NCBI GenBank assembly: GCA_903893625.1 | Contig: CAITND010000151.1 | Span: 71,738 to 91,664, forward strand | DNA length: 19,927 bases | Direction of reading: 5' to 3' | Origin: an uncultured Oscillatoriales cyanobacterium | GTDB lineage: Bacteria; Cyanobacteriota; Cyanobacteriia; Cyanobacteriales; Microcoleaceae | In this document: positions 969 through 15,332 of the stretch, one piece after another | Numbering within the stretch: the first letter of the stretch is position 1 | How the letters are laid out: each line of letters starts with the position of its first letter | Program-made: the position numbers and the translations under genes | Notes under the pieces: generated by a model | What the model saw: the letters and a program-made list of their open reading frames with translations, nothing else | Told to the model about the DNA's origin: nothing | The model's database searches: none

Positions 969-3422
969 TTGATTTTTCATGATCCCTTTAATATTGAGCC
1001 TAAAATGACAGACGATTTTGATCTCGATCCAGTTTCCTCCCTCCATTCTATACCAACCCCAGAAGCGGAATCGGTTGTTTCTGAGGTGACAACGAATTCT
1101 TTAGAAAATATTGAGCAAATTCAAGCATTTCGAGCGCAAAAAATAAAAGAAATTTATCAAAGTTTACGTCCGGGTCAACAACAAATGGCAGACTGGAATG
1201 GGGGGCCATTAGCCATTTCTGCCGTTCCAGGTGCCGGGAAATCAACGGGAATGGCTTTTGCAGCCGCTTTAGCAATCGCTCGGTATCCCCTGCATTCTCA
1301 TCATCAATTAGTTATTGTTACATTTACCCGTTCAGCCGCCGCAAATATTCGCGCTAAAGTCAGTGAACAACTCAAAGCCATGCGATTACCATTAGGAGGA
1401 TTTGTTGTTCATACTTTGCATGGTTTAGCCTTGAATATTGCCTTAAAACATCCTGAATTATCGGGATTAAATTTAGATGATTTTACTTTAATTTTACCTA
1501 CTCCCAGTAATCGAATTACTCGCACCTGTGTTGAGCAGTGGATTGCTGCTAATCCTCGCCATTATCAACGGTTAATTGAAGGGGTTCAATTTGATGGAGA
1601 AGAAACAGAACGGTTAAGGCGACAATCGGTTTTACGGACAGAAGTTTTACCGAATTTAGCTTGGAAAGTGATTCAAGAAGCCAAAAGTTCAGGACTGCAA
1701 CCGGAAGATTTAAACCGAATTTCTGAACAAATTCCTGATGATTATGAGATTTTAAAAATAGCAGGGGGATTATATGAAAATTATCAAATTTTATTGCGAT
1801 CGCAGAATTTAATTGATTATGACGAAATGATTTTAGCTGCATTGCGAGTCTTAGAAAATCCAACAATTCGTCAAGTGTGGCAAAATCAATTCTTTGCTGT
1901 GTTTGAAGATGAAGCTCAAGATTCTACCCCTCTACAAAGTAAACTCTTGAGAATTTTAGCCCGTTCTTATGAATCAATTACTGATGATTTAGATACTTTA
2001 AATTTAGTTCGAGTCGGTGATCCCAATCAAGCGATTAACTCAACATTTACTCCGGCTGATCCGATTTATTTTCGTCGTTTTTGTAATGATTGTGAACAAT
2101 TAAAACGGTTAGCTACAATGGATCAGGCAGGACGAAGTAGTCGGATTATTATTGATGCAGCTAACTATATGTTATCCTGGGTAAATCGATCAAAATTAGC
2201 CGGAAATGAACAACCTTTTCGAGAGCAAATGATTCATTTAGTGGGATTTAATGACCAGCAATCAAATGCCAATCCTCCCGCATATAGTCGAGGTTTAGAA
2301 CTCTGTGAACCTGCGGATATTTATCAAACCGTTGAGTGGATTGTGGAACGGATTGTGACGATTCTTCAAGATGATCCAAAAGGGAAATTTGCTATTTTAC
2401 TTCGAGAAAATAAACAAGGAGAGTTTATTTCTAGCGTTTTGACTAATCCCCAATTGTATAATATTAAAATTCCTGAAGAATTTAAAACTAAAATTCGGAT
2501 TTATGATGCTTCCCAACAGGCGCGAAATTCTAAAATTCCAGCAGAAATTTTATCTTTATTACAATTTTTAGATCGTCCCCATTCACCGGATTATTTAAAA
2601 TTGGCGTTAAAAGTTTTAGGCGATCGCAATTTAATTCCTAATTTGGATTATAATAAAATTGCGATTCATCCTGAAGAATTTCTGTATCCTGGCCCCCTTG
2701 ATCCGCCACAATCGGAAGAAATTCGGAAATGTCGTTATTTTTGTTGTCAATTATTGCAAGCGCGTTTAGAACTTCCTCCCTATCAATTGATCTCCTTTTT
2801 AGCGTTATCCTTGGATTATGAAAGAACGGAATTAGCAACGGCTGATAAATTAGCAGAACGCATTGCTAAAAACACCTCTGGTAACCATTCAATGGGAACA
2901 ATTTTAGACGTTTTAAACGATATTGTTAGTTCTGAACGGTTTGAACCCGTTGATATTGATGATGAAGAAACCTCTAAAGAAAGTCCCTACACCCGTGAAG
3001 GTCAATTAACTCTAATTACCATGCACAAAGCCAAAGGATTAGATTGGGATTATGTGTTTCTTCCCTTTTTACAAGAGTCTACAATTCCCGGTAGTTTACG
3101 AGTTTTATCCCAAACAAAATTTCTAGGAGAATTAACCCTTTCTGAAGTCGCCCGCGCTCAAATTCGAGCCGCATCTCATGGACAAGAATTGATTCCCGAT
3201 GTCGTTACCGCTTGGGAACAAGCTAAGGATTTAAAAACCGCAGAAGAATATCGGTTACTCTATGTCGCTATAACGAGAGCTAAACGTTTTTTATGGATGT
3301 CTGCATCTCGTTTTTCTCCCTATAGTTGGCATAAACCCGAAAATCAGCAAGAACAAAAAGCCTGTCCAGTTTTTATTGCTTTAAAACAACAATTTCCTCA
3401 ACATTTTTTAGAGAAATTTTAA
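969..3422 (+). CDS. UvrD/REP/PcrA-family (superfamily 1) ATP-dependent DNA helicase
   Basis: Walker A in [12 protein letters not shown]. Motif Ia-like [14 protein letters not shown]. Motif [12 protein letters not shown]. Motif [15 protein letters not shown]. UvrD C-terminal domain motifs [22 protein letters not shown] and [18 protein letters not shown]. The N-terminus has a ~70-aa extension before the helicase core. An alternative start at M13 (nt 1005) is possible. Confidence 0.85.
1796..1803. repeat. HIP1 octamer GCGATCGC (one of 11 exact copies in the window)
   Basis: Exact GCGATCGC copies at about 1796, 2620, 4379, 6987, 7619, 7878, 10408, 13833, 14882, 15670 and 16758. None occurs between 10416 and 13832 or after 16766. 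HIP1 over-representation is a cyanobacterial hallmark. Confidence 0.8.
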
Positions 3423-6400
3423 AAAATAGAAGAAATAGTTTGTTCTATTTTGGGTTGAATTTCAGCATCAAATCCAGCAGATTTTAAGGCATCAAGAGTT
3501 GCTTCGGCATTCTGTATCCAGAAGTCACGACCCCAAGAAACCCCTTGATAATTCTGCTTAAATTCTCCTGTCACCTTAGCGACGATGGGAATATTAGCTT
3601 GTTGTTGATTACCAGATGATTGTTCTTTGAGGAGTGCCTGAAGGTTGTGTAAGGTTCGATCATCAACTTGTTGATATTTGATTTGAAGTAGGATCATGAT
3701 TTTAGGCTCCTCTAGAATACTATTAATCGATGAGTTAGACTCCTCTGGAATACTATTAATGGATTTAATTTCATCAACAAGAAGCTGTGTTTTATCTTCT
3801 TGTTTATCTACTTTTCCCACCAGTAAAACGATATTATTGGCAATGAGTAAAGGTTCATTTTCTTTATAAGTTCGAGGAAAAACCACCCCTTCTGCTTGTC
3901 CGCTTAAGTCTTCTAACTGCAAAAAAGCCATCCGTTCATTCTTTTTAGTGGTATGCAGTTTGATTCCACTTAGGATCACCAGAACTTTAACCGATGCTTT
4001 TGCTTTCTTTTCAGAAAGTTGACTGAGAGAAACTACATCGGCAATATTAATAGTTTTGGCAAAGCTTGTTAAGGGATGTTCAGAAACATAAAATCCTAGT
4101 AATTCTTTCTCAAACTGCAACTTTTCTTTAATTGAAAAATCTTCGACTTTAGGAGGTTTGGGCGCGTCTTCATGGGTTGTTTTTATATTAGTTTCTCCTC
4201 CTAAAATGTCAAAAATACTTTGTTGACCAATTTCTCGATCTTTCGCTTTATGTTGCGCCCAAGTCATCAATAGTTTAAGATGATCGATCGCTTGCTTACG
4301 GTTGGGGTTAAGTTTATCTAAAGCTCCACATTTAATTAAAGCTTCTAAAGCCCGACTATTAACCATTTGTAAATTTATGCGATCGCATAAATCGGGAAAA
4401 CTCTTAAATTCTCCTCCTTCTTGACGCACGGCTAATAAATGTTCTATAGCACCTTCTCCCACATTTTTAATTGCAGAAAGTCCGAAAATAATACTCTGAT
4501 CTGAGGGGGTAAAATCCATACCCGAAAGATTAATATCTGGGGGGATCACCTTAATTCCCAAAGATTTTTGACAAGATTCAATATATTTTTGGATCTTATC
4601 CGTATCCCCACTATTTGCACTTAATAAAGCCGCCATATATTCAACTGGATAATTTGCTTTTAAATAAGCAGTTTCATAGGTGACATAAGCATAGGCCATT
4701 GAATGGGATTTGTTAAAGCAATATTCAGCGAATTGAAGCATCTGTTCAAACAATTTTTCAGCGATTTTTTGCTGAACTCCATTTTTAGTGGCCCCATCAA
4801 TAAATGTCTCCCGTTGCTTATTCATTTCTTCCGCTTTTTTCTTCCCCATTGCTCGTCTTAATAAATCCGCTTGACCTAAAGAATAGCCCGCTAAATCTTG
4901 AGCTAATTTCATAATTTGTTCTTGAAAACATAAAATTCCATAGGTTTCTTTTAAAATTGGCTCTAACAGAGGATGGTCATATCTAATTTCATCCCGTCCA
5001 TGTTTACGATCAATAAATTGTGGAATTAAACCCGCATCTAAGGGCCCCGGACGATACAGCGCTAAAATAGAAGAAATATCATCCAAACAGGAAGGCTTGA
5101 GTTTTTTAACAATATCTATCATCCCAGAAGATTCTAACTGAAAGATGCCATCTAAATCGCCTTTTTCTAGTAATTTATAAGTTTTCAGTACATCTTCAGG
5201 TAACTTTTTATGGGTTTTATAGGCATCTTGGGCTTTTCTTTCAATATCAGAAGGCAATTTTTCAGGATCAATTTTATGGCCATATATTTCTTCAATATAA
5301 TTAACTGCTTTTTGAATCATGGTTAAATTTCTTAACCCTAAAAAATCCATTTTTAATAATCCAACCGCCTCTAAATCCTCCATATAATATTGAGTAATAA
5401 CTGCCCCATCATTATTGCGCTGTAGGGGAACAATTTCGTCTAAAGACTGTTTAGAAATCACCACACCCGCCGCATGAACCCCGAAGGTTTTGTTCGTTCC
5501 TTCGATGCGAATTGCCATATCTAGCCATTGTTTAACACTAATGGTATCGACTTCTTCCCCCGCCTCATTATGAACCGGAACATTTTCATTATCATAAGCT
5601 TCTTTGAATTCCGGTGCGGGACTTTGATCGGAAATCATAACTTTTAAACGGGCGGGTTTTCCCCGTGAAACCGGAATTAATTTCGCCATTTGATCGGATT
5701 TTTTATAGGAAATTCCTAATACCCTGGCGACATCTTTTAACACCGCTTTAGAGGTCATACGGTTAAACGTAATAATTTGAGCCACTTTATCCGCTCCATA
5801 TTTTTCGGTGACATATTTAATCATTTCATCTCGTCTTTCAATACAGAAATCCGTATCAATATCAGGCATAGATTTTCGTTCAGGATTTAAAAATCTTTCA
5901 AATAATAAACCATGATAAACTGGATCAATATTGGTAATTTTTAGGGCATAAGCTACTAATGATCCCGCCGCCGAACCTCGTCCTGGCCCGACGGCAATAT
6001 TGTGATCTCTGGCAAATTTAATATAATCCCAAACGACTAAAAAGTAAGTCGAAAACCCCATCTTTTGCATCATTTTGAGTTCATATTCTAAGCGCTCTTT
6101 ATAGATGGGTTTAATCTCGCTTCTGGTTTTGGCATTCATCCGTTCTAATAACCCTTTCCAGGTGACTTCTTCTAAATAAGTATCAGCCGTATGATCAGGG
6201 GGAATGGGATAGTCAGGGATGCGGGGTTCCCCTAAAATACCGGAATAGGGTTCAACTTTATTGGCAACTTCTACCGTATTATTAATCGCTTCTTGAATGA
6301 TATCATCCGATAAATGATCTCGAAATAATTGCGCCATTTCTTCAGCAGATTTTAAATATTCTGTACCGCTATAGCGCATTCGTTTTTCTTCACTAATTAA

Positions 6401-7096
6401 TTTTTGGGTATTAATACAAAGTAAGGCATCATGGGCTTCTACATCATTACAGGAGATAAAATGGGAGTCATTAGTGGCGACAAGTTTAATATTTAATTCT
6501 CGACTAATTTTAACAATTTCAACATTCACCATCCGATCTTCTGGAGAACCATGATCTTGAATTTCTAAATAAAAATCCTCTCCAAATACCCTTTGATACC
6601 ATTGAGCGACTTCCCGCGCCTTCTCGTAGAGTCCTTGTAAAATTGCTTGGGGAATTTCTCCCCCTAAACAAGCACTGGTAACAATTAACCCTTCATGATA
6701 TTGTTCTAATAGTTCTTTATTAATACAGGGACGTGCAAAAATGCCTTTTCCTTGAAACCCTTGCAAGTGTGAAATGGTGGTTAATTTAACTAAGTTTTTA
6801 TAGCCTTGGCTATTTTTAGCTAAGACCACTTGATGATATTTTCTTCGTTTCTTATCCTTCTGATCCTGAACTTTAACATCACCATTAATCACATACATCT
6901 CATTGCCAATAATGGGTTTTATCCCTTTATTTCGGCAAGTTTTAATTAACTCAATTGCCCCATACATAACTCCGTGATCGGTGATAGCGATCGCAGGCAT
7001 TCCTAACTCTAATGCTCGGTCAATTAATTGCGGTAATTGAGATGCACCATCGAGTAAACTATAATCACTATGAATATGTAAACCTACAAAAGACAT
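3419..7096 (-). CDS. dnaE: DNA polymerase III alpha subunit (DnaE), contiguous and intein-free
   Basis: 1225 aa. N-terminal PHP domain [50 protein letters not shown] is canonical DnaE. The polymerase core has [19 protein letters not shown] and [19 protein letters not shown]; the OB-fold C-terminus is present. The 3' end overlaps the helicase gene by 4 nt (convergent). Confidence 0.95.
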
Positions 7097-7142: not shown

Positions 7143-8906
7143 ATGATTGACTTCCGTAATACTAACACAGTTTGGGCTTCTGTATTGGTGGAAACTTTAG
7201 CCAAATTAGGATTAAAAACTGCCATTCTTTGTCCCGGTTCCCGTTCTACCCCTTTAACAATTGCTTTTGCTCAACATTCTAGCATTGAAACCATCCCAAT
7301 TTTAGATGAACGTTCCGCTTCTTTTTTTGCTTTGGGAATTGCTAAAAAATCGGGTTTACCGACGGTTTTAGTTTGTACTTCAGGAACCGCAGGAGCTAAT
7401 TTTTATCCCGCTATTATAGAAGCCAAAGAAAGCCGAGTTACTCTATTAATTTTAACCGCAGATCGCCCCCCTGAATTAAGAGATTGTCATGCTGGACAAA
7501 CCATTGATCAGCTTAAATTATATGGGAATTATCCTAACTTTCAAACCGAATTAAGCATCCCTAGTTTGGATTTAGGATTGTTAGGTTATTTGCGACAAAC
7601 ATTAATTTATGCTTGGGAGCGATCGCAACTTCCTATTCCCGGTGTTGTCCATCTTAATATTCCCTTTCGTGATCCTTTACATCCCGTTTATCAACCGGAA
7701 GTAGAAGATTTAAAAGCCGTATTTCCTGATGATTTTTTCCAAAAAATTAATCCTGTAAAAACTTCAATTTTTTCTGGTTTTGATCTTTATGATTATTTTA
7801 AACAGTGGTATAATTATTCTCAAGGAATTATTATTGCGGGTGTAGCTCAACCTCAAAATTCCGAGGGTTATTGTCAAGCGATCGCCCAACTTGCTAAACA
7901 ATTAAATTATCCCGTCTTAGCAGAGGGATTATCTCCCGTTAGGAATTATTCTAACCTTAATCCCTATTTGATCTCAACCTATAATTTAATCCTGAGAAAT
8001 TCAACCTTAGCCGAAAAACTCGCCCCTCAAATTGTGATTCAAATTGGAGATTTACCCACCAGCAAAACCCTCAGAAACTGGTTAGAACAACTACAACCAG
8101 ATTATTTTATTCTTGACCCAACCTATCAAAATTTAGATGGGTTACATGGAAAAACAACCCATTTGAGGATATCTATCGAACAGCTATCAGAACAAATTCA
8201 TCAGAGAAAAAATCCACAACCTCTTAACTCAACTCAATCTGAATTATATTGTCATCTTTGGTGTAAATTAGAAGCGCAAGCGAGAACCGCTATTGACCAA
8301 AAATTAGAACCCATTAATCTATTAATAGAACCTAAAATTGCTGGGTTACTCTCCCAAATTTTGCCTAAAAATACACCGATTTTTATTGCTAATAGTATGC
8401 CCGTGAGAGATGTAGAATTTTTTTGGAGTCCGAATACATTAAATATTCAACCTTTTTTTAATCGAGGTGCAAATGGTATCGATGGAACCTTATCCACTGC
8501 ATTAGGAATTGCCCATCATCAACAAAGTAGTATTTTATTAACAGGAGATTTAGCATTACTTCATGATACAAATGGATTTTTAATTAGGAATAAATTTATC
8601 GGACATTTAACAATTATTTTAATTAATAATAATGGAGGTGGAATTTTTGAAATGTTACCCATTTCTCAATTTGATCCTCCTTTTGAGGACTATTTTGCTA
8701 CCCCTCAAAATATTAACTTTGCTCAATTAGCGACAACTTATAATATTGAGTATGAACAAATTCAATCTTGGGAACAGTTAAAACAACGATTAAATCCCCT
8801 TCCTGAGCAAGGAATTAGGATTTTAGAAATTCCAACAAATCGCAAAATTGATGCAAAATGGAGGCAAAAATATCTACAGCAATTCGCCAATCAACTAAAA
8901 TTATAG
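7143..8906 (+). CDS. menD: 2-succinyl-5-enolpyruvyl-6-hydroxy-3-cyclohexene-1-carboxylate (SEPHCHC) synthase MenD, ThDP-dependent (phylloquinone pathway)
   Basis: 587 aa. N-terminus NTVWASVLVETLAKLGLKTAILCPGSRSTPLTIAF. Then TSGTAGANFYPAIIEAKESRVTLLILTADRPPELRDCHAGQTIDQ. C-terminal ThDP-binding region GDLALLHDTNGF...LINNNGGGIF. This is the typical MenD architecture and length. Confidence 0.9.
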   Translation: MIDFRNTNTVWASVLVETLAKLGLKTAILCPGSRSTPLTIAFAQHSSIETIPILDERSASFFALGIAKKSGLPTVLVCTSGTAGANFYPAIIEAKESRVTLLILTADRPPELRDCHAGQTIDQLKLYGNYPNFQTELSIPSLDLGLLGYLRQTLIYAWERSQLPIPGVVHLNIPFRDPLHPVYQPEVEDLKAVFPDDFFQKINPVKTSIFSGFDLYDYFKQWYNYSQGIIIAGVAQPQNSEGYCQAIAQLAKQLNYPVLAEGLSPVRNYSNLNPYLISTYNLILRNSTLAEKLAPQIVIQIGDLPTSKTLRNWLEQLQPDYFILDPTYQNLDGLHGKTTHLRISIEQLSEQIHQRKNPQPLNSTQSELYCHLWCKLEAQARTAIDQKLEPINLLIEPKIAGLLSQILPKNTPIFIANSMPVRDVEFFWSPNTLNIQPFFNRGANGIDGTLSTALGIAHHQQSSILLTGDLALLHDTNGFLIRNKFIGHLTIILINNNGGGIFEMLPISQFDPPFEDYFATPQNINFAQLATTYNIEYEQIQSWEQLKQRLNPLPEQGIRILEIPTNRKIDAKWRQKYLQQFANQLKL

Positions 8907-10267
8907 AAACCGGGTTTCTGAAGTTGCCAAACTCTCCGACGTTTTTGACCTGTTGGAATTGAGGGAAATTGATCAAGAAATACAATTTCAGGGATATGAC
9001 AGTGGAGACGTTCAAAAAGCGATTTTAGCGATTTAATAACCCCTTCTTGAATCATATCTTTTTCGCCATTTCTAACTTTCAAAGCAACTTCTATCCGATT
9101 TAAACTTAACTGCATCACTTGATAATCCTCAATATCCGCAGAAACCATAACAATTGCTCTGCGAATAAAATCAGGAAAAATTGTCACCCATTCACCATGA
9201 CTAGATTGATGAGGGAGATAAAAAATATCATCCTGTCGTCCTTCTATCTGTTCAATAGCCATTAACACTGACCCACACTGACATGGTGTTTTACGCTCTA
9301 CTAAAATATCATTCAGTTTATAACGGATAATCGGTTGCGTTGTTCGTCTAAAATCGGTTATAATCGGCATAAATCTGAATTTATCTTCATCTAAATATTC
9401 TTTTTGAATTACAACACTATCCTCATTGAGATGTAAGGTTCCATAATCACAGGTATAACCCAAAAATCCTTCTGTACATTGATAAACTTGATGAATAATT
9501 TGATTAAAAACTCCGCTAATATAATCTGCATCTAAAGGATCAAGCACTTCAGCAACGGAAACTATTTTTTTTGGTGATATCTTTAAAGTCCCTTGTGCTT
9601 GAGATTCCGCTAATAATCGTAATAAAGAAGCAGGAGCGACTAAAATTGTGGGTTGATACTGATTTAATCGTTGAATATGATTCGTTATTGGTTCTAATAA
9701 ATCAAAAAAATTAAACTGCAAACGCCGACTTTTTACCGTTTCATATAATCGACTATTTGCCCTTAGAAAAAATGCAATTTTCTCAGGAAATAAAATAAAA
9801 TTAGGTAATAATTTGGCTAAAATTGTTCCAGCCCAAATCCATTCTTCTTGAGGACTAACTAAAAATAACCCTCGATTTCCACTCGTTCCCGTCGATAGTC
9901 CAACGGTATATCCGCGTAAATTAGAGCTAAAATCTCGCGTTTGTTCAGCTTTCAATGCAATTTCAAAAGCTTCTGAGGCTGAAATTTTAACGGTATTAAG
10001 TTGATCAAAATTTTCCATCATTTTCGCTTTATCAATAATTGGAAAATTTTGCCAATCTTGAATTTCTAAACCTTGATAATACTGTTGATAAAAGGGAGAT
10101 CGAGGCAAAATCTTATTTAAAAAGTTTTGAACCTGTTGATTTTGCCATTTTAATAACTGTTCTCGACTATTGAAATGTCTAAAATATTTTGTTTTTAAAT
10201 AGTGATTAAGAATGATTAATGTACGTTTCATTTTAATAATATACCTCGTAGGCTGTGTTTTACTCAC
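8891..10267 (-). CDS. Adenylate-forming enzyme, PaaK / coenzyme F390 synthetase / CapK / GH3-like superfamily (function unknown)
   Basis: 458 aa. Phosphate-binding loop YTVGLSTGTSGNRGLFLVS resembles the SSGTTGKP motif of PaaK/F390-synthetase-like enzymes. It does not fit the ANL (MenE) A3 signature. The likely true start is M13 (MKRTLIILNHYL..., around nt 10231). The 3' end overlaps menD by 16 nt (convergent). Confidence 0.55.
   Translation of the reverse strand: MSKTQPTRYIIKMKRTLIILNHYLKTKYFRHFNSREQLLKWQNQQVQNFLNKILPRSPFYQQYYQGLEIQDWQNFPIIDKAKMMENFDQLNTVKISASEAFEIALKAEQTRDFSSNLRGYTVGLSTGTSGNRGLFLVSPQEEWIWAGTILAKLLPNFILFPEKIAFFLRANSRLYETVKSRRLQFNFFDLLEPITNHIQRLNQYQPTILVAPASLLRLLAESQAQGTLKISPKKIVSVAEVLDPLDADYISGVFNQIIHQVYQCTEGFLGYTCDYGTLHLNEDSVVIQKEYLDEDKFRFMPIITDFRRTTQPIIRYKLNDILVERKTPCQCGSVLMAIEQIEGRQDDIFYLPHQSSHGEWVTIFPDFIRRAIVMVSADIEDYQVMQLSLNRIEVALKVRNGEKDMIQEGVIKSLKSLFERLHCHIPEIVFLDQFPSIPTGQKRRRVWQLQKPGFYNFS
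8904..8925. repeat. Palindromic short repeat copy 1: TAGAAACCGGGTTTCTGAAGTT (core AGAAACC-G-GGTTTCT)
   Basis: 15-nt palindrome with 7-nt arms. It overlaps the menD stop codon (TAG 8904-8906) and the 3' end of the convergent adenylate-forming enzyme gene. A 22-of-24-nt near-identical copy lies at 15377-15398. Confidence 0.6.
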
Positions 10268-10523
10268 CTAGAACTCTGTTGTATTAAATAATGTTGCTGG
10301 TGCGTGGACTATGCTTATGTAGCTTACAATAATTACATCTTAATTTGCGTAAATTTACGGTTTCTTTTTATGATTTTATCCGCTATTCTAAAATTTAGTA
10401 AGTTTGAGCGATCGCTCCTTATGAACTATTGATCAATATCCTTACCTGCTTTTTTTCTATATCACCTTCTCTCTATCCTGTTTTCCATTTACCTCTAATA
10501 AAAATAACTTCAACTTCGTTCCT

Positions 10524-11729
10524 ATGAATACACAACCGTTTTGGCTTCCTTTGGTTAGATCTTTAATTCTTCTTCCGCTTGGAATTCCTGGCTTTTTAAT
10601 CCTACCATTTCTAATAGATATTTTTATAAGTATATCTGGCTCAACTCGATTTATTTGGTTATCAAGATTAGGTATTTTTACTATTTTATGTGTATTAATA
10701 ACAATAGTTATATGCTCATTATTTTATCTTTTGAGTCAAGTTTTAATAGGTAAATGGCTGCCTAAGTTTAATTTTTTATGGGAAGGAACAAAAGCAACAT
10801 TTATAATTTTTATTAATTCTCTAATTACTTGGAATATTCTCTTTAAATTTCAAGAATTAAATTGTAAATTTTTTTATGATTTATCTGAAGAAGCAGAGAT
10901 TTCATATTGCATGGGAATGAAAACTAATATAGTAATTTCTAATATGCTAGAAAATCCTACTAGCTTAAGTGCATTATTCGTTTTGATAATTTGGCTTATG
11001 CTCGCAACTATATTCTACCGACTAGAGAATAATAGTAATCAATCTAAAAATAATTTATCAAAAACTATTGTATTTTTCCTAGTAGGTTTAATTATTAGTT
11101 CAGGCATTAAACTCTCGCAAATTACTCCATCACAGAATGTAAATTCTGATGCTTCTGTTACTGAAAACACTGAACAAACGTCTTCCTCAAATGTTCAAAC
11201 GACAGAAGAAATTGTACCAGAAAATAATGAAGAAAATCAGGATGAAACTAATTATTTTCGAGAGGCCATTGAAACAGCAACAAAAGCTGCTAATTTAGCA
11301 CAAACTGCTAAAACTTCCGATGAATGGAAAACTGTTGCAGATGAATGGAAAAATGCTATTGAATTAATGCAATCTGTTCCTGATTCTTCGGAAAATTATG
11401 TGCTTGCTCAAGATCGGGTTCAACAATATCAAAATAATTTACAGTATAGTCAAAAAAAGGCTAATCCCCAGCCTAAAAATCCATCCGTAAAACATCCAGA
11501 AATTTATTTTCAACAAGGGTTAAATGAAGCTAATACTGCTGCATTTTTAACACAAACCTCTAAATCAAAAGATGAATGGGAATTTGTAGCGAGTCAATGG
11601 GAAAAAGCAATTGAAAATATGAAAGCGGTTTCGACTTCTGATGTTAATTATGGCAAAGCACAACAACGGGTTATTCAGTATCAAAAAAATCTGGATTATG
11701 CGCGTTTAGCTGCTAGTCGTGCTAAATAA
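10524..11729 (+). CDS. Multi-pass membrane protein with a duplicated ~70-aa C-terminal soluble module (no recognised family)
   Basis: 401 aa. Residues 1-200 contain ~5 hydrophobic helices (LILLPLGIPGFLILPFLIDIFISI, IFTILCVLITIVICSLFYLL, ATFIIFINSLITWNILF, LSALFVLIIWLMLATIF, IVFFLVGLIISSGI). Residues ~244-317 and ~328-401 are a tandem repeat at ~45% identity (YFREAIETATKAANLAQTAKTSDEWKTVADEWKNAIELMQSV...AQDRVQQYQNNLQY vs YFQQGLNEANTAAFLTQTSKSKDEWEFVASQWEKAIENMKAV...AQQRVIQYQKNLDY). DNA is very AT-rich (~25-30% GC) compared with its neighbours. Confidence 0.75.
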   Translation: MNTQPFWLPLVRSLILLPLGIPGFLILPFLIDIFISISGSTRFIWLSRLGIFTILCVLITIVICSLFYLLSQVLIGKWLPKFNFLWEGTKATFIIFINSLITWNILFKFQELNCKFFYDLSEEAEISYCMGMKTNIVISNMLENPTSLSALFVLIIWLMLATIFYRLENNSNQSKNNLSKTIVFFLVGLIISSGIKLSQITPSQNVNSDASVTENTEQTSSSNVQTTEEIVPENNEENQDETNYFREAIETATKAANLAQTAKTSDEWKTVADEWKNAIELMQSVPDSSENYVLAQDRVQQYQNNLQYSQKKANPQPKNPSVKHPEIYFQQGLNEANTAAFLTQTSKSKDEWEFVASQWEKAIENMKAVSTSDVNYGKAQQRVIQYQKNLDYARLAASRAK

Positions 11730-11803
11730 TAAAACTAGCTAGACAACTTCTGACCTCAATGTGCTAAAGTTAAAATAGATTAGGGCTATTTTTACAGCAA
11801 AAT

Positions 11804-12880
11804 TTGATTAATATGCTTGAAAATATAGAAATTCAAAATTTTAGATGTTTTGAAGATACTAAAATTTTAGGGTTTAAACGAGTGAATTTAATCGGGGGTA
11901 AAAATAACGCTGGAAAGACAGCTTTTTTAGAAGCTTTACTGTTGCATAACTTTCCTCGCCCTAAAAGCATAATTGAACTTAAAAGAATTAGGAGAGAGTC
12001 TTCAGAGATTTCAAAATCAAGACCTGAAAAGACTTGGGATAATTTTTTTTTAGAGCAAAGTCATCAAGGAGAAATAAAAATTAGTGGCAAATATTCAGAA
12101 AATTGTAAAACGGTAGAGCTTTCTGTTTCGGATACAATTAACTCAGATTTTTTTGAAGATCAAAAAGATATAAAAAAATTGATTGACTTTATTTCTCAAA
12201 ATGAATCAGTAACATCACTTAATATTAAAGTTACTCAAAATCAAGAGAAAATATCTGAATCTTCGGTAATTGCAAGCTCAAACGGAATAATTTCAGTCAA
12301 TGGTTCAGACTCAACTGATATACCTATTATTCCCTCTGGTTTAAGAATGTCTAATAAAGAGTTAGCTGAATCTTATGATAAAGCTCGTTTAGATGAAAAA
12401 GATGGTGAAGTTTTAAAATTATTACAAATTCTTGATTCATCAATTCAAGAGGTCGATAGTTTTTCTATTGGTGAACCTACTTTATATTTAAGAAGCATAA
12501 ATAAACGTCGCTTACCTATTTCACTCTATGGAGATGCTATTATTCGGGCTACAACTATGATTTTAAAATTAATCAATAATAATCATAAAATCTTGTTAAT
12601 TGATGAAATAGAAAATGGCATACACTATACTAATCAACGAGAATTTTGGCGAACTTTATTTCGACTATCAACAGAACTAGATACGCAAATTTTTGCCACA
12701 ACCCACAGTTTAGAAATGATTCAAGCTTTTGGAGATGTAGGCTTAGAAATGGATGAAGAAATGAGTGCTTATTTTGAACTAGCAAGACATCCTAAAACTA
12801 ACGACATTATAGGAATTAAAAGGGATGTAGAAACTTTAAAATATGCTTTAGAACATGGAAAAGGAGTTAGAGGTGAGTAA
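11804..12880 (+). CDS. ABC-type (AAA_15/AAA_21, RecF/SMC/OLD-like) ATPase, PARIS AriA-like defence ATPase
   Basis: 358 aa. N-terminus IEIQNFRCFEDTKILGFKRVNLIGGKNNAGKTAFLEALLL is the classic N-terminal beta-strand plus Walker A (GKNNAGKT) of RecF/OLD-like ABC ATPases. C-terminus has Walker B KILLIDEIENGIH and an H-loop FATTHSLEMI. Very AT-rich (first 60 nt ~20% GC). The stop overlaps the next gene. Confidence 0.8.
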   Translation: MINMLENIEIQNFRCFEDTKILGFKRVNLIGGKNNAGKTAFLEALLLHNFPRPKSIIELKRIRRESSEISKSRPEKTWDNFFLEQSHQGEIKISGKYSENCKTVELSVSDTINSDFFEDQKDIKKLIDFISQNESVTSLNIKVTQNQEKISESSVIASSNGIISVNGSDSTDIPIIPSGLRMSNKELAESYDKARLDEKDGEVLKLLQILDSSIQEVDSFSIGEPTLYLRSINKRRLPISLYGDAIIRATTMILKLINNNHKILLIDEIENGIHYTNQREFWRTLFRLSTELDTQIFATTHSLEMIQAFGDVGLEMDEEMSAYFELARHPKTNDIIGIKRDVETLKYALEHGKGVRGE

Positions 12881-13571
12881 TCTTTTAATTGTGGAAAGTA
12901 AAAATGATAAATTTTTTCTTAAAGCTCTAATTAAAGAGCTAAATTATGATATTGAGATTGATGCTCCTATTTGTATTGATGACTATGAATGTTTAGAAGG
13001 ATTAAGTGAAAAAAGGCTAGTAGGGGCTTTAAAGTCCTTGTTAGCTGATATCCAGAAAAGACAAATTAGTAAAATTGGAATTGTGATCGATATTGATCAA
13101 TATTCTAAGCAAGAGCGTTTACAATTTATTAATCAATGTTTAGGGCAGGTTTTTCCTTTAAATCATGAATTTTCTGATATATCACAATTCATAACTGTCA
13201 ATATTCCTGACTATGATTCTATTGAAATAGCTTGTTATTTTACCCATGTCGAAGGTCAAGGAGAGTTAGAAACTGCCTTAAAACTTATTAAAACCCAAGA
13301 ATCTCCTTATGCAGATTGTTTAGACAGTTGGCGAACCTGTTTAAAAAGTAATAATGAATCGATTAGTGATAAAGACTATGATAAATTTTGGATTAGTAAT
13401 TATATTCGATTTGATACTTGTTCTGGTTCAGAACCCAAGCAAGCAGAACGAAAATGCAGCATGAAAAATTTTGAATATATTATGGAAAATAAAAAAGATA
13501 TCTGGAATTTTAATCACCCTGTTCTCGATGAGATCAAAGAATTTTTGCAGCTTTTCGTTGCTGAGAGTTGA
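12855..13571 (+). CDS. Toprim-domain (DUF4435/OLD-nuclease-like) protein, PARIS AriB-like putative effector nuclease
   Basis: 238 aa. N-terminal LLIVESKNDKFFLKALI matches the Toprim beta1 'ilVEG.tD..f' motif with the catalytic Glu. IGIVIDIDQY provides the Toprim DxD motif. Overlaps the upstream ATPase gene by 26 nt. An alternative start GTG at ~12873-12875 is preceded by AAGGAG and overlaps the ATPase stop as GTGAGTAA, consistent with translational coupling. Confidence 0.7.
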   Translation: MEKELEVSNLLIVESKNDKFFLKALIKELNYDIEIDAPICIDDYECLEGLSEKRLVGALKSLLADIQKRQISKIGIVIDIDQYSKQERLQFINQCLGQVFPLNHEFSDISQFITVNIPDYDSIEIACYFTHVEGQGELETALKLIKTQESPYADCLDSWRTCLKSNNESISDKDYDKFWISNYIRFDTCSGSEPKQAERKCSMKNFEYIMENKKDIWNFNHPVLDEIKEFLQLFVAES

Positions 13572-13635
13572 TCAAATAGAAAATAGTGGGGCTGGGGAGG
13601 AGTATTTCTGTTATCATTAAAAGCAGAATTCATCA

Positions 13636-13653
13636 GGTGCATGGGGATGCACC
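13636..13653. terminator. Hairpin between convergent Toprim gene and psaK (possible weak psaK terminator)
   Basis: GGTGCAT-GGGG-ATGCACC: perfect 7-bp stem with a 4-nt loop. On the minus strand it is followed, after ~10 nt, by CTTTTAA. There is no clean U-tract on the plus strand. Confidence 0.3.
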
Positions 13654-13669
13654 CTACATCTGAAATGAG

Positions 13670-13930
13670 TTAAATTACTCCTAAACTGGATAATCCTAAA
13701 ATCACACCCGCCCCTAAAATATGACCAAAACTTGTGGTTGCTAAAACCGCAGGTAAGCCAAACCCACCGAACATATTAGGTGAGGGTAATTGAGGGCCAG
13801 CATTAGGCTGTTGGATCGATAATTTACCAATGGCGATCGCTGCAATATTGGATACAATCATTACAATAGCGATGGTAGGACTCCAGGCGTGAGTAACGGG
13901 GGTAGCAGCAGTGACGGCTAAAAGCATCAT
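13670..13930 (-). CDS. psaK: Photosystem I reaction centre subunit PsaK
   Basis: 86 aa, two transmembrane helices. WSPTIAIVMIVSNIAAIAIGK...PNMFGGFGLPAVLATTSFGHILGAGVILGLSSLG matches the cyanobacterial PsaK consensus (WSP..., FGGFG, ATTxFGHILGxG). Higher GC and C-ending codons are typical of a highly expressed gene. Confidence 0.9.
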   Translation of the reverse strand: MMLLAVTAATPVTHAWSPTIAIVMIVSNIAAIAIGKLSIQQPNAGPQLPSPNMFGGFGLPAVLATTSFGHILGAGVILGLSSLGVI

Positions 13931-14111
13931 GGAATTATCTCCTAAAGTTTTTTAAACTGTAACCAATGGAAATTAATCGTTATAGCTAAGATGTTTTACC
14001 AAACAAAGGGAATTGATTTTCGTCCTTGTAGCAATACTTAACATTTTCTCCCTAAAATTGCTATCCTAGTTTAAAGAAACGGCCCGACTCAGAGAAACCA
14101 TTGATTTTAAT

Positions 14112-15332
14112 ATGACTAAACAGCAAACCCGCATCTGTATCCTTGGGGGAGGTTTTGGTGGACTCTACACCGCCTTACGTTTGAGTCAACTTCCTTGGCA
14201 AAAATCGGAAGAACCGGAAATTGTTCTGGTGGATCAGAATGACCATTTTTTATTTTTACCTTTGTTGTATGAACTGCTAACCGATGAACTGCAAGCTTGG
14301 GAAATTTCTCCAGCTTTTGAAGACCTGTTAAAAGATACAAATGTGCGGTTTTGTCAAGGTGTTGTCAGTGAAATTAATATTGAAACTAAACAGGTTAAAC
14401 TGCAAAATAATTCGCCCATTTCCTATGATTATTTGGTGTTAGCAATGGGGGGAGAAACGCCTTTAGATCAAGTTCCTGGGGCGAAAGAGTATGCAATTCC
14501 TTTCCGAACTATTGCTAATGCTTATCGTTTAGAAGAACAGTTGCGACGGTTAGAAACCTCCGATCAAGATAAAATTCGGTTGGCAATTGTTGGGGGCGGT
14601 TATTGTGGAGTTGAATTAGCTTGTAAATTAGCCGATCGCTTAGGAACAAAAGCCCGGATTAGAATTATTGAACAAGCGGAGGAAATCTTAAAAACCTCTC
14701 CTGAATTTAATCGAGAAGTGGCTCAAAATGCGTTATCAGATCGACAAGTTTGGATCGATTTAGAAACCACTGTAGCAGCAATTGAAGGAGATAGAATTGC
14801 ACTAGAATATCGAGGTGAAATTGATGAAATTCCGGTTGATATTGTGCTGTGGACGGTGGGAACAAAAGTCTCTCCTGTGGTGCGATCGCTCCCTTTTAAA
14901 CAAAATCAACGGGGTCAAATTGTTACAACATCAACCTTACAAGTGATTGATCATCCTGAAATTTTTGCATTAGGAGATTTAGCAGATTGTAAAGATGCGG
15001 AGGGTCAAACTATTCCAACTACGGCCCAAGCCGCTTTTCAACAAGCAGATTATACCGGGTGGAATCTTTGGGCATTATTAACAGGAAGACCTTTATTACC
15101 CTTCCGATATATTAATTTAGGGGAAATGATCACATTAGGAATAGATAACGCCACCCTAACAGGTTTAGGGGTTAAATTAGACGGTCAATTTGCCCATTTA
15201 GCCCGACGGTTAATGTATTTATATCGCTTCCCAACCTTAGATCATCAAATCCGAGTTGCTGTTAATTGGATAACTCGACCGTTACAGGATTTGTTAATTT
15301 CAATGGATCAGAAAATTGGGACGAAAGAATAG
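14112..15332 (+). CDS. Type II NAD(P)H dehydrogenase (NDH-2), probably NdbB/NDC1-like demethylphylloquinone reductase
   Basis: 406 aa. N-terminal Rossmann dinucleotide-binding motif RICILGGGFGGLYTALRL. Second nucleotide-binding motif RLAIVGGGYCGVELACKL. A length of ~400 aa without a C-terminal extension fits the NdbB class rather than NdbA/NdbC. The NdbB assignment is an inference from the genomic context: divergent from psaK and close to menD. Confidence 0.8.
   Translation: MTKQQTRICILGGGFGGLYTALRLSQLPWQKSEEPEIVLVDQNDHFLFLPLLYELLTDELQAWEISPAFEDLLKDTNVRFCQGVVSEINIETKQVKLQNNSPISYDYLVLAMGGETPLDQVPGAKEYAIPFRTIANAYRLEEQLRRLETSDQDKIRLAIVGGGYCGVELACKLADRLGTKARIRIIEQAEEILKTSPEFNREVAQNALSDRQVWIDLETTVAAIEGDRIALEYRGEIDEIPVDIVLWTVGTKVSPVVRSLPFKQNQRGQIVTTSTLQVIDHPEIFALGDLADCKDAEGQTIPTTAQAAFQQADYTGWNLWALLTGRPLLPFRYINLGEMITLGIDNATLTGLGVKLDGQFAHLARRLMYLYRFPTLDHQIRVAVNWITRPLQDLLISMDQKIGTKE

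Follow-up and report, generated by a model that had tools for sequence, protein, structure and literature searches.

Gene content of the locus

The window analysed is a 19,927-nucleotide stretch of DNA from a Planktothrix-like cyanobacterium whose nearest named relatives are Planktothrix species. The block under study (10268–13669) holds three genes with separate histories, namely a gene for a membrane protein and a coupled pair encoding an ATPase and a DUF3226 protein (Table 1). The original prediction had placed the block between core loci. The gene identities given there (menD, an F390-synthetase-related gene, psaK and an ndbB-like gene) were confirmed, but the F390-like gene cannot count as a core flank, since two of the nine Planktothrix loci compared (P. 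paucivesiculata, L019, and P. agardhii, L020) are without it. Its nearest relatives found outside Planktothrix were from Bacillota and Bacteroidota (at 43–55%). The true start of this gene is likely to be near 10231.

Table 1. Positions of the features described in the text (numbering of the window).
Feature	Positions	Strand	Basis or remark
F390-synthetase-related adenylate-forming gene	8891..10267	-	TIGR02304, NCBIfam 7e-175
High-identity tract to P. paucivesiculata	10359..11759	.	Nucleotide identity above flanks
Membrane/repeat protein, 401 aa	10524..11729	+	Sequence; internal repeat D1
Indel unit (ATPase–DUF3226 module)	11760..13576	+	Bounded by genome comparison
ABC (Rad50/SMC-like) AAA_15/AAA_21 ATPase, 355 aa	11813..12880	+	Counted from ATG 11813
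Walker A, GGKNNAGKT	11894..11920	+	Translation; homologue alignment
ABC-signature-like motif, SLYGDA	12521..12538	+	Translation; homologue alignment
Walker B and D-loop region, LLIDEIENGIH	12593..12625	+	Translation; homologue alignment
H-loop, FATTHS	12692..12709	+	Translation; homologue alignment
Shine–Dalgarno-like AAGGAG	12861..12866	+	6 nt upstream of conserved DUF3226 GTG
DUF3226 protein, 232 aa	12873..13571	+	From GTG 12873; predicted Toprim/OLD-like nuclease effector
VESKND motif (Toprim-type glutamate E8; D12)	12891..12908	+	Homologue alignment
IDIDQ, Toprim DxD motif (D73, D75)	13086..13100	+	Homologue alignment
GELET acidic motif (E131, E133)	13260..13274	+	Invariant among 40 close homologues
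Cysteines C149, C156, C183, C195	13317..13457	+	Invariant in 40 homologues
Spacer to psaK	13577..13669	.	Blastn breakpoints, alignment, sequence
psaK, conserved right neighbour	13670..13930	-	Pfam PSI_PSAK 9.9e-23

The nucleotide-binding motifs of the ATPase were compared across 40 homologues. Residues G29, N31, N32, G34, K35 and T36 of Walker A, S237, L238, G240, D241 and A242 of the signature, D264, E265, E267, N268, G269 and H271 of the Walker B/D-loop region and F294 through S299 of the H-loop were all invariant. The mechanically called open reading frame begins at TTG 11804 rather than at the ATG used here.

The DUF3226 gene starts inside the ATPase gene, overlapping its stop codon (TAA 12878–12880) by 8 nt. 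Both the GTG start and the AAGGAG element were invariant across six aligned orthologues, and an alternative ATG at 12855 was ATA in two of the species. The order ATPase then DUF3226 was found in all of the contexts examined, which range from Planktothrix to Acinetobacter, and the arrangement of the two genes points to a translationally coupled operon. Pfam assigned the second protein to DUF3226; from its model, it is predicted to be a stand-alone Toprim/OLD-like domain carrying the metal-binding E…DxD signature. E8 and D12 were invariant in 51 DUF3226 sequences at 27–55% identity, and the DxD residues did not vary among 40 close homologues; in a broad set they, like C149 and C156, were conserved in at least 90%. 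The four conserved cysteines may form a metal-binding cluster.

The N-terminal half of the membrane protein is hydrophobic; there is a low-complexity linker, and the C-terminal part contains two repeats of ∼75 residues. No match to it was obtained in Pfam, PADLOC or NCBIfam, and its 26 homologues were all cyanobacterial. A search of 9800–14200 against Rfam returned one sub-threshold chance match, and a promoter and terminator scan gave background levels. A hairpin (13636–13653) sits between the convergent genes in the spacer to psaK.

Base composition of the block

The GC content of the block was 0.306, compared with 0.372 in the rest of the window, so the size of the drop that had been proposed was confirmed; its shape was not. 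In 500 nt windows the GC content was 0.27–0.35 within the block and 0.39–0.43 to its right, and on the left it was already declining from ∼7500 (menD 0.349, F390-like gene 0.330); the only abrupt step is the right edge, at 13570–13670. Values for the first 60 nt of the ATPase gene and menD (0.18 and 0.40, respectively) were close to those first reported. The preference for codons ending in A or T is real and barely distinctive, with GC3 at 0.17–0.21 for the block genes versus 0.21–0.29 for most neighbours. Codon positions 1 and 2 together carry ∼63% of the GC deficit, a share that reflects amino-acid composition; the proteins of the ATPase–DUF3226 pair contain more S, I, E, K, N and D and less A, P and V. 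When GC3 was conditioned on the amino-acid content of each gene and on core-gene codon usage, it was low for the ATPase gene (z = −3.6) and the membrane-protein gene (z = −5.0) and not low for the DUF3226 gene (z = −0.6); menD and the F390-like gene were likewise low (z = −2.4 and −2.7).

HIP1 was present in 11 copies in the window with none between 10416 and 13832, as had been noted, but this gap carries no signal. With 11 copies, the block would be free of HIP1 with a probability of 0.13; the largest gap reached at least 3425 nt in 94% of random placements, and the last 3169 nt of the window also lack HIP1, though they are richer in GC.

These features had been taken to mean that the whole 3.3 kb block is foreign DNA of recent arrival, AT-rich and free of HIP1 because it has not yet adjusted to the host. 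The composition is indeed host-atypical (GC 0.30 versus 0.37), and GC and GC3 both lie below those of the flanks. However, AT-richness of the pair was found in every host examined: its GC content was 7–13 points lower than that of the neighbouring genes in each of Planktothrix, Microcoleus, Coleofasciculus, Crocosphaera and Acinetobacter, and the orthologous pairs at the same site in Planktothrix had GC contents of 0.29–0.31. In the hosts examined, AT-richness is thus a lasting property of the ATPase–DUF3226 gene family. All orthologues show this offset, distant hosts included, so composition does not date the acquisition.

History of the psaK site

An intact ATPase–DUF3226 pair occupies the same site in seven of the nine Planktothrix loci. 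The loci with the pair include those of P. tepida and a near-identical second genome, PCC 11201, UBA8402 and two P. agardhii genomes, and the 90% cluster of the ATPase also takes in P. rubescens and P. mougeotii. The other two loci bear deletion scars instead of an empty pre-insertion site, and both hold remnants of the pair. P. paucivesiculata lacks exactly 9940–11759 of the P. tepida locus (L011) and retains a 21-codon 3′ remnant of the DUF3226 gene (...LKEFLKILADES*) exactly where it would be expected; GU0601_MAG3 keeps the pair with two internal deletions. In P. agardhii the last 37 nt of psaK adjoin the DUF3226 gene and the right flank is now YebC, and a Microcoleus-type contig has the order pair–HisPhos–psaK, with one gene between the pair and psaK. 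The divergence ranking of the pair roughly tracks that of the flanks.

These comparisons show that the ancestor of the Planktothrix species sampled already carried the module next to psaK, where it probably stood even earlier, and that two lineages have since lost it by deletion. Purifying selection has maintained it. Since the pair has been at the site from before the Planktothrix species split, its low GC content is read as characteristic of the gene family rather than as a sign of recent import. Orthologous loci with the same pair and composition are also what the original prediction had itself named as evidence against recent acquisition, and that part of it is largely refuted. An island of recent origin is considered very improbable, even though the absence of the pair from P. 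paucivesiculata would suit it, as would the synonymous divergence, which in the pair reaches about half the level of the flanks; the latter counts against the explanation preferred here. Neither an integrase or other mobility gene nor a tRNA was found among the genes of the window, and no flanking direct or inverted repeats of the block were significant in the window (z ∼ 0); the check suggested earlier gave no sign of mobility. In UBA8402 a 60 nt inverted repeat flanks the block and in P. agardhii there is a 25 nt hairpin repeat; these were treated as small local hairpin repeats rather than the ends of an element. The locus provides a worked counter-example to the use of low GC content as evidence of recent horizontal transfer, because the same AT-rich module was in place before the sampled species separated.

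The block had also been regarded as a single insertion of ∼3.3 kb. The breakpoints limit the indel unit to the pair: its left break was placed at window 11759 (7236 in the P. paucivesiculata locus) and its right break between 13576 and 13577 (11755 and 13412 in L011). At the latter junction a 1.66 kb segment is missing relative to P. tepida according to blastn; it encodes an oxidoreductase-like gene of 523–532 aa. The membrane-protein gene has its own history. The tract that covers it is 97.4% identical to P. paucivesiculata over 1401 nt, compared with 85.5–87.7% for dnaE/menD, psaK/ndbB and HAD/DUF4336 in the same comparison, which argues for a recent import by recombination over this gene; this real recent exchange at the locus is a further point in favour of an island. 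To P. tepida and PCC 11201 the membrane protein is only 36–45% identical in local and global alignments. The gene was considered as a third component of the system and was rejected because it was undetected at the locus in P. agardhii L013, never adjoins the pair outside Planktothrix in the contexts examined and diverges in a different pattern.

That the block lies within a truly variable stretch between conserved genes was borne out. Neighbouring accessory genes have been gained, lost and exchanged between species by homologous recombination, and the locus is a small hotspot of recombination and indels at which the F390-like, membrane-protein and oxidoreductase-like genes each come and go. 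Planktothrix is a genus of toxic bloom formers with little-studied phage defences.

Predicted function of the ATPase–DUF3226 pair

The best sequence-profile matches of the pair were all to defence families. The ATPase matched the PADLOC AbiLi profile (PDLC02336) end to end (9.7e-58, profile positions 1–340 of 340) and PDC-M38A (PDLC04611; 3.5e-55, residues 4–352, profile 1–379 of 383). DUF3226 matched PDC-M38B (PDLC04623) at 2.9e-12, over residues 9–90 only, its N-terminal third. Both component models of PDC-M38 were thus matched by adjacent, co-oriented and overlapping genes; PDC-M38 is itself a computational candidate only. The module is best described as a putative split OLD-like system with an AbiLi-like ATPase, and corresponds to PADLOC candidate PDC-M38. 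The term `defence islet' used at the outset is plausible as a prediction from homology (AbiLi, PDC-M38A/B and the Toprim/OLD-like fold), with the recent acquisition dropped from it.

The closest known systems differ from the window pair in their partners and architecture. Lactococcal AbiL likewise combines an ABC ATPase with a small Toprim-type protein encoded after it (PMC13064643), but its partner is AbiLii, an RloB-type Toprim protein; AbiLii was not among the PADLOC matches of the pair at E ≤ 0.01 and RloB was not assigned by Pfam. PARIS combines the ABC ATPase AriA, of 53–55 kDa, with the DUF4435 Toprim nuclease AriB. The window ATPase is much shorter, its insertion is β-rich and not a coiled coil, and no AriB/DUF4435 match was found in PADLOC or Pfam. 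In the OLD family (P2 Old, class 2 B. pseudomallei OLD and GajA) the ATPase and Toprim domains are fused in one chain, whereas here they occupy separate reading frames; the Toprim fold with a conserved Glu and DxD is present in the DUF3226 model, and no sequence similarity to Toprim_Old was detectable. A hypothetical protein of Pyrococcus horikoshii, PH0156 (PDB entry 2p62), is among the closest known to the window module. Text searches of the literature returned no paper addressing DUF3226 or PDC-M38.

The reading preferred here, which is considered fairly probable, is that 11760–13576 is an old split OLD-like ATPase–Toprim operon with a predicted defence role, lost by deletion in two lineages and located in a hotspot. 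By analogy with PARIS and other ATPase plus Toprim systems, an oligomer of the ATPase would hold the nuclease inactive and sense a phage cue; infection would release or activate the Toprim effector, which might then cut nucleic acid (tRNA or DNA), and the infection would be aborted. Association with defence is suggested by the neighbourhood of the pair in Crocosphaera, which is rich in TA and RM genes, and by the ATPase plus Toprim systems in the literature (PMC11464382, PMC10802264, PMC13064643). Against it, ordinary metabolic genes make up most of the immediate surroundings of the pair in Planktothrix, Microcoleus and Coleofasciculus. A scan of IMG/VR for DUF3226 gave no match, and the BLAST matches in the phage and plasmid collections were Acinetobacter records; the one phage-labelled record inspected had a chromosomal context and the plasmid-collection match was a 4.09 Mb record. 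A mobile defence gene would not usually be retained vertically for so long, stay under purifying selection and be missing from the phage, plasmid and IMG/VR collections searched; these features would also fit a housekeeping or an addiction role.

As an addiction (toxin–antitoxin-like) module of the chromosome, the pair would comprise a Toprim toxin neutralized by the ATPase and would persist because cells that lost only the ATPase would die; an effect on phages would be secondary or absent. PARIS acts as such a pair, with AriA neutralizing AriB (PMC10802264, as relayed in PMC13064643). The tight translational coupling and long retention without evident mobility agree with this, as does the inactivation of the DUF3226 gene together with the ATPase gene in both observed losses, although two events are a small basis and a dN/dS of 0.39–0.57 for DUF3226 is faster than expected for a tightly controlled toxin. 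This explanation, which is compatible with a defence role and does not exclude it, is judged unlikely. A housekeeping complex of a Rad50/SbcC-like ATPase and a Toprim nuclease, serving repair or RNA maturation in filamentous cyanobacteria, is rated lower still. The top structural matches of the ATPase were indeed Rad50/SMC heads, the ATPase evolves under purifying selection, synteny on the psaK side is kept across Planktothrix and the Microcoleus-type contig, and the mobile-element collections searched did not contain the pair. However, the family is a small one with a patchy distribution (361 clusters among 1.84 billion representatives), and the pair is dispensable in two Planktothrix lineages, is richer in AT than each of its hosts, lies in contexts that are unrelated between Coleofasciculus, Crocosphaera and Acinetobacter and has the defence-family matches described above.

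Within the defence reading, the pair could represent a mechanistically distinct branch of ATPase–Toprim immunity. Its effector, with a cysteine cluster that may bind zinc, would be unrelated in sequence to AriB, AbiLii and OLD, and the system, in contrast to typical mobile defence genes, would have stayed at a single chromosomal site beside psaK from a time before the split of Planktothrix and Microcoleus, with alleles recombining between species, as a `domesticated' defence locus of bloom-forming cyanobacteria; this extension is judged unlikely. The best 150 DUF3226 representatives listed were all short, mostly 200–265 aa with a longest of 312 aa, and include many shorter fragments. The analysis nominates DUF3226 as a predicted Toprim-type effector partnered with an AbiLi-like ATPase, and E8, D73/D75, E131/E133 and C149/C156/C183/C195 are concrete residues for mutagenesis.

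Orthologous loci and the age of the pair

The block (window 10268–13669) contains three ORFs: a membrane-protein gene followed by an ABC ATPase gene and a DUF3226 gene (the latter two termed the pair). Searches with the pair, the membrane protein and the F390-synthetase-related protein served to recover orthologous loci. Nine Planktothrix loci were obtained, including that of the window; P. rubescens and P. mougeotii proteins are also present in the 90% cluster of the ATPase. The pair is intact at seven of the nine loci and the other two carry a pseudogene and a deletion scar, which contradicts the recent acquisition proposed in the original prediction and is the outcome that the prediction itself named as refuting it. 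Two deletions lie within the GU0601_MAG3 pair, equivalent to window 11848–12598 and 12916–13377. P. paucivesiculata lacks exactly the pair-bearing segment of P. tepida (L011 9940–11759), retains a 21-codon remnant of the 3′ end of DUF3226 (PEIDQILNQLKEFLKILADES*) at the expected position and continues downstream of it with sequence common to P. tepida and UBA8402; judged from these junctions, the site is a deletion scar rather than an empty pre-insertion site.

In one P. agardhii locus (L013) the final 37 nt of psaK persist 36 nt 3′ of DUF3226, the flank now being YebC, and the DUF3226–psaK adjacency is therefore ancestral. Outside Planktothrix, a Microcoleus-type contig has the gene order XFP–ATPase–DUF3226–HisPhos–psaK (identity to the window of 56% for the ATPase, 57% for DUF3226 and 60% for psaK), which suggests from gene order that the psaK linkage of the pair is older than the genus Planktothrix.

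Gene content of the nine Planktothrix loci (+, present; -, absent)
Locus	F390-like gene	Membrane gene	Pair	523–532-aa gene	Right flank
Window	+	+	+	-	psaK
UBA8402 (L010)	+	+	+	+ (453 aa)	psaK
P. tepida and near-identical second genome (L011, L012)	+	+	+	+	psaK
PCC 11201 (L001)	+	+	+	-	YebC
GU0601_MAG3 (L002)	+	+	pseudogene	-	YebC
P. agardhii (L013)	+	-	+	-	YebC
P. agardhii (L020)	-	+	+	-	YebC
P. paucivesiculata (L019)	-	+	deleted	+	psaK

Base composition and mobility marks

The predicted drop in GC content is real in size (30.6% in the block versus 37.2% in the remaining window; 36.1% in the whole window) but abrupt at the right edge only. In 500-nt sliding windows GC is 0.27–0.35 within the block and 0.39–0.43 rightward of it, whereas the leftward fall is stepwise (menD 0.349, F390-like gene 0.330, three block genes 0.298–0.305). 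The figures quoted for the first 60 nt were about right (ATPase gene 0.18, menD 0.40). Codons ending in A or T do predominate in the block (GC3 0.17–0.21), but this is barely distinctive, since GC3 is also low in most neighbouring genes (0.21–0.29). Codon positions 1 and 2, i.e. amino-acid composition, account for ∼63% of the GC deficit. Once amino-acid content is allowed for, GC3 falls below expectation in the ATPase (z = −3.6) and membrane (z = −5.0) genes, likewise in menD and the F390-like gene, and not in DUF3226 (z = −0.6). The HIP1 count was reproduced (11 copies in the window, none within 10416–13832), but the gap is uninformative because the block would hold no copy with a probability of 0.13, 94% of random placements produce a maximal gap at least as large and the final, GC-richer 3.2 kb of the window also lacks HIP1.

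In all hosts examined the GC content of the pair lies 7–13 points under that of its neighbours: 0.29–0.31 in Planktothrix (whole locus 0.36–0.38), 0.34–0.36 in Microcoleus L016 (neighbouring genes 0.42–0.53, whole locus 0.44), 0.36 in the Microcoleus-type contig L021 (rest of locus 0.44), 0.34 in Coleofasciculus (rest of locus 0.47), 0.26 in Crocosphaera (whole locus 0.35) and 0.28 in Acinetobacter (rest of locus 0.39). AT-richness thus belongs to the family as a stable trait; it fails as a sign of recent acquisition, and composition gives no date for the arrival of the module. The biological interest of the pair is modest, and it is more useful as a caution against inferring recent transfer from composition.

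A search of the window for the proposed integrase remnants and flanking direct repeats gave no integrase or transposase among its ORFs, no tRNA gene and no flanking repeats of the block above shuffled expectation. DUF3226 was not found in IMG/VR. Its matches in phage and plasmid collections were Acinetobacter records only; the one phage-labelled record that was inspected had a chromosomal context and the plasmid-collection match was a 4.09-Mb record.

Predicted proteins and proposed mechanism

The membrane protein has no family match among Pfam, PADLOC and NCBIfam profiles, and its 26 homologues are exclusively cyanobacterial. The ATPase matches AbiLi (9.7e-58, entire profile) and PDC-M38A (3.5e-55) in PADLOC and, more weakly, AriA, GajA, PtuA and Old; its Walker A, signature-like, Walker B and H-loop motifs are intact and invariant across homologues. 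A GTG start at 12873 with AAGGAG 6 nt upstream is conserved in six orthologues and an ATG at 12855 is not, so that the start of DUF3226 shares 8 nt with the end of the ATPase gene, an arrangement that implies probable translational coupling. The DUF3226 structure was predicted with a pLDDT of 85 and a pTM of 0.84. In a set of 51 sequences that are just 27–55% identical to the window protein, E8 of VESKND does not vary, and D73xD75 of IDIDQ, C149 and C156 are each retained by at least 90%; 40 closer homologues all carry C183 and C195. The pair combines an intact ABC ATPase with a coupled Toprim-like protein bearing a conserved acidic triad. dN/dS is 0.14–0.22 for the ATPase and 0.39–0.57 for DUF3226.

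By analogy with PARIS, AbiL, OLD and Gabija, as described in PMC11464382, PMC10802264 and PMC13064643, the ATPase would be a sensor and a scaffold restraining the nuclease, a phage cue would release or activate the nuclease and the outcome would be abortive infection. Alternatively, the pair might be an addiction module or a housekeeping nuclease. The pair matches both components of the PADLOC candidate PDC-M38. The ATPase is AbiLi-like, but its partner is not AbiLii; AriA of PARIS has a coiled coil, whereas the insertion in the window ATPase is β-rich. Assignment as PARIS was ruled out by the lack of DUF4435 and as a classical OLD protein by the location of the domains on separate proteins. 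In the AAA15/21 defence tree (PMC11464382) the Toprim-type partners include TOPRIM-Old, DUF4435, RloB and DUF4276, and DUF3226 is not annotated; a text search of the literature found no mention of DUF3226 or PDC-M38. With 361 clusters at 50% identity among 1.84 billion representatives, the DUF3226 family is small.

Recombination and gene turnover

Despite the age of the pair, the menD–psaK locus is a hotspot: the F390-like, membrane and oxidoreductase-like (523–532-aa) genes are each polymorphic for presence among the Planktothrix loci. The F390-like gene, considered a core flank in the original prediction, is missing from both P. paucivesiculata and one of the P. agardhii genomes. Its nearest non-Planktothrix relatives found are from Thermoflavimicrobium (55%) and Bacteroidota MAGs (43–49%), and the gene could have been acquired horizontally at an older date.

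Window 10359–11759, spanning the membrane gene, shares 97.4% identity with P. paucivesiculata against 85.5–87.7% for every flank in that comparison, and clearly marks a recent recombination tract. The membrane gene occurs as two allelic types that diverge exactly from the start codon, with just 36–40% identity in the N-terminal part in local alignments. From the left end up to position 11000, L011 and L012 are almost identical; 25 substitutions, all inside DUF3226, fall in 11034–11750 and the next 2 kb are again near-identical, a pattern resembling that left by local gene conversion or recombination within the effector gene. When window 11813–13571 was compared with L001, L010, L011 and L013, synonymous divergence was 0.17–0.25 for the ATPase, 0.13–0.16 for DUF3226, 0.28–0.65 for the flanks and 0.14–0.28 for psaK. 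For every two species compared, the pair thus has about half the divergence of the housekeeping genes beside it (psaK apart), which fits either repeated interspecies exchange or synonymous-site constraint.

Coordinates of features at the locus
Feature	Position	Description
dnaE	window 3419–7096 (-)	single uninterrupted 1225-aa ORF
F390-like gene	window 8891–10267 (-)	GC 0.33
Membrane gene	window 10524–11729 (+)	401 aa; hydrophobic N-terminal half, low-complexity linker, two C-terminal ∼75-aa repeats
ABC ATPase gene	window 11813–12880 (+)	355 aa; Pfam AAA_15, AAA_21
DUF3226 gene	window 12873–13571 (+)	232 aa; Pfam 1.5e-28; PDC-M38B 2.9e-12
psaK	window 13670–13930 (-)	
523–532-aa gene	L011 11756–13411; L019 7356–8927; L010 4355–5716	between DUF3226 and psaK; FAD-binding, weak geranylgeranyl-reductase-family match; missing at window 13576|13577 (clean 1.66-kb deletion relative to P. 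tepida)
GGTGCGT…ACGCACC element	L010 4240–4360, 9281–9340; L011 about 8350–8410; window 10248–10335	hairpin-containing, ∼60–90 nt
Endonuclease and methyltransferase genes	L013 630–2268	GC 0.30–0.32

In all five aligned genomes the spacer between the F390-like and membrane genes (window 10360–10400) contains an invariant stretch, GTAAATTTACGGTTT, and a conserved HIP1 site, which may together form a shared regulatory site of divergent promoters. In UBA8402 the block is flanked by inverted copies of the GGTGCGT…ACGCACC element (z = 24.6), an additional copy occurs in the same spacer in P. tepida and only a degenerate left copy is found in the window; a local MITE-like repeat and a duplicated terminator are candidate readings. 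Just past dnaE in P. agardhii L013, a ScaI-like restriction endonuclease and an N6/N4 methyltransferase make up another AT-rich pair of defence type close to the locus. dnaE itself was compared in the window, L001, L011, L013, L019 and L020. P. paucivesiculata resembles the window (1228 aa), only an N-terminal part of 889–892 aa is present at the locus in P. tepida and in one P. agardhii genome, a different P. agardhii encodes a 1122-aa product with an intein-splicing domain and PCC 11201 has ∼1.2 kb inserted at the same point; judged from these reading frames, the differences are an intein/split-gene polymorphism within Planktothrix.
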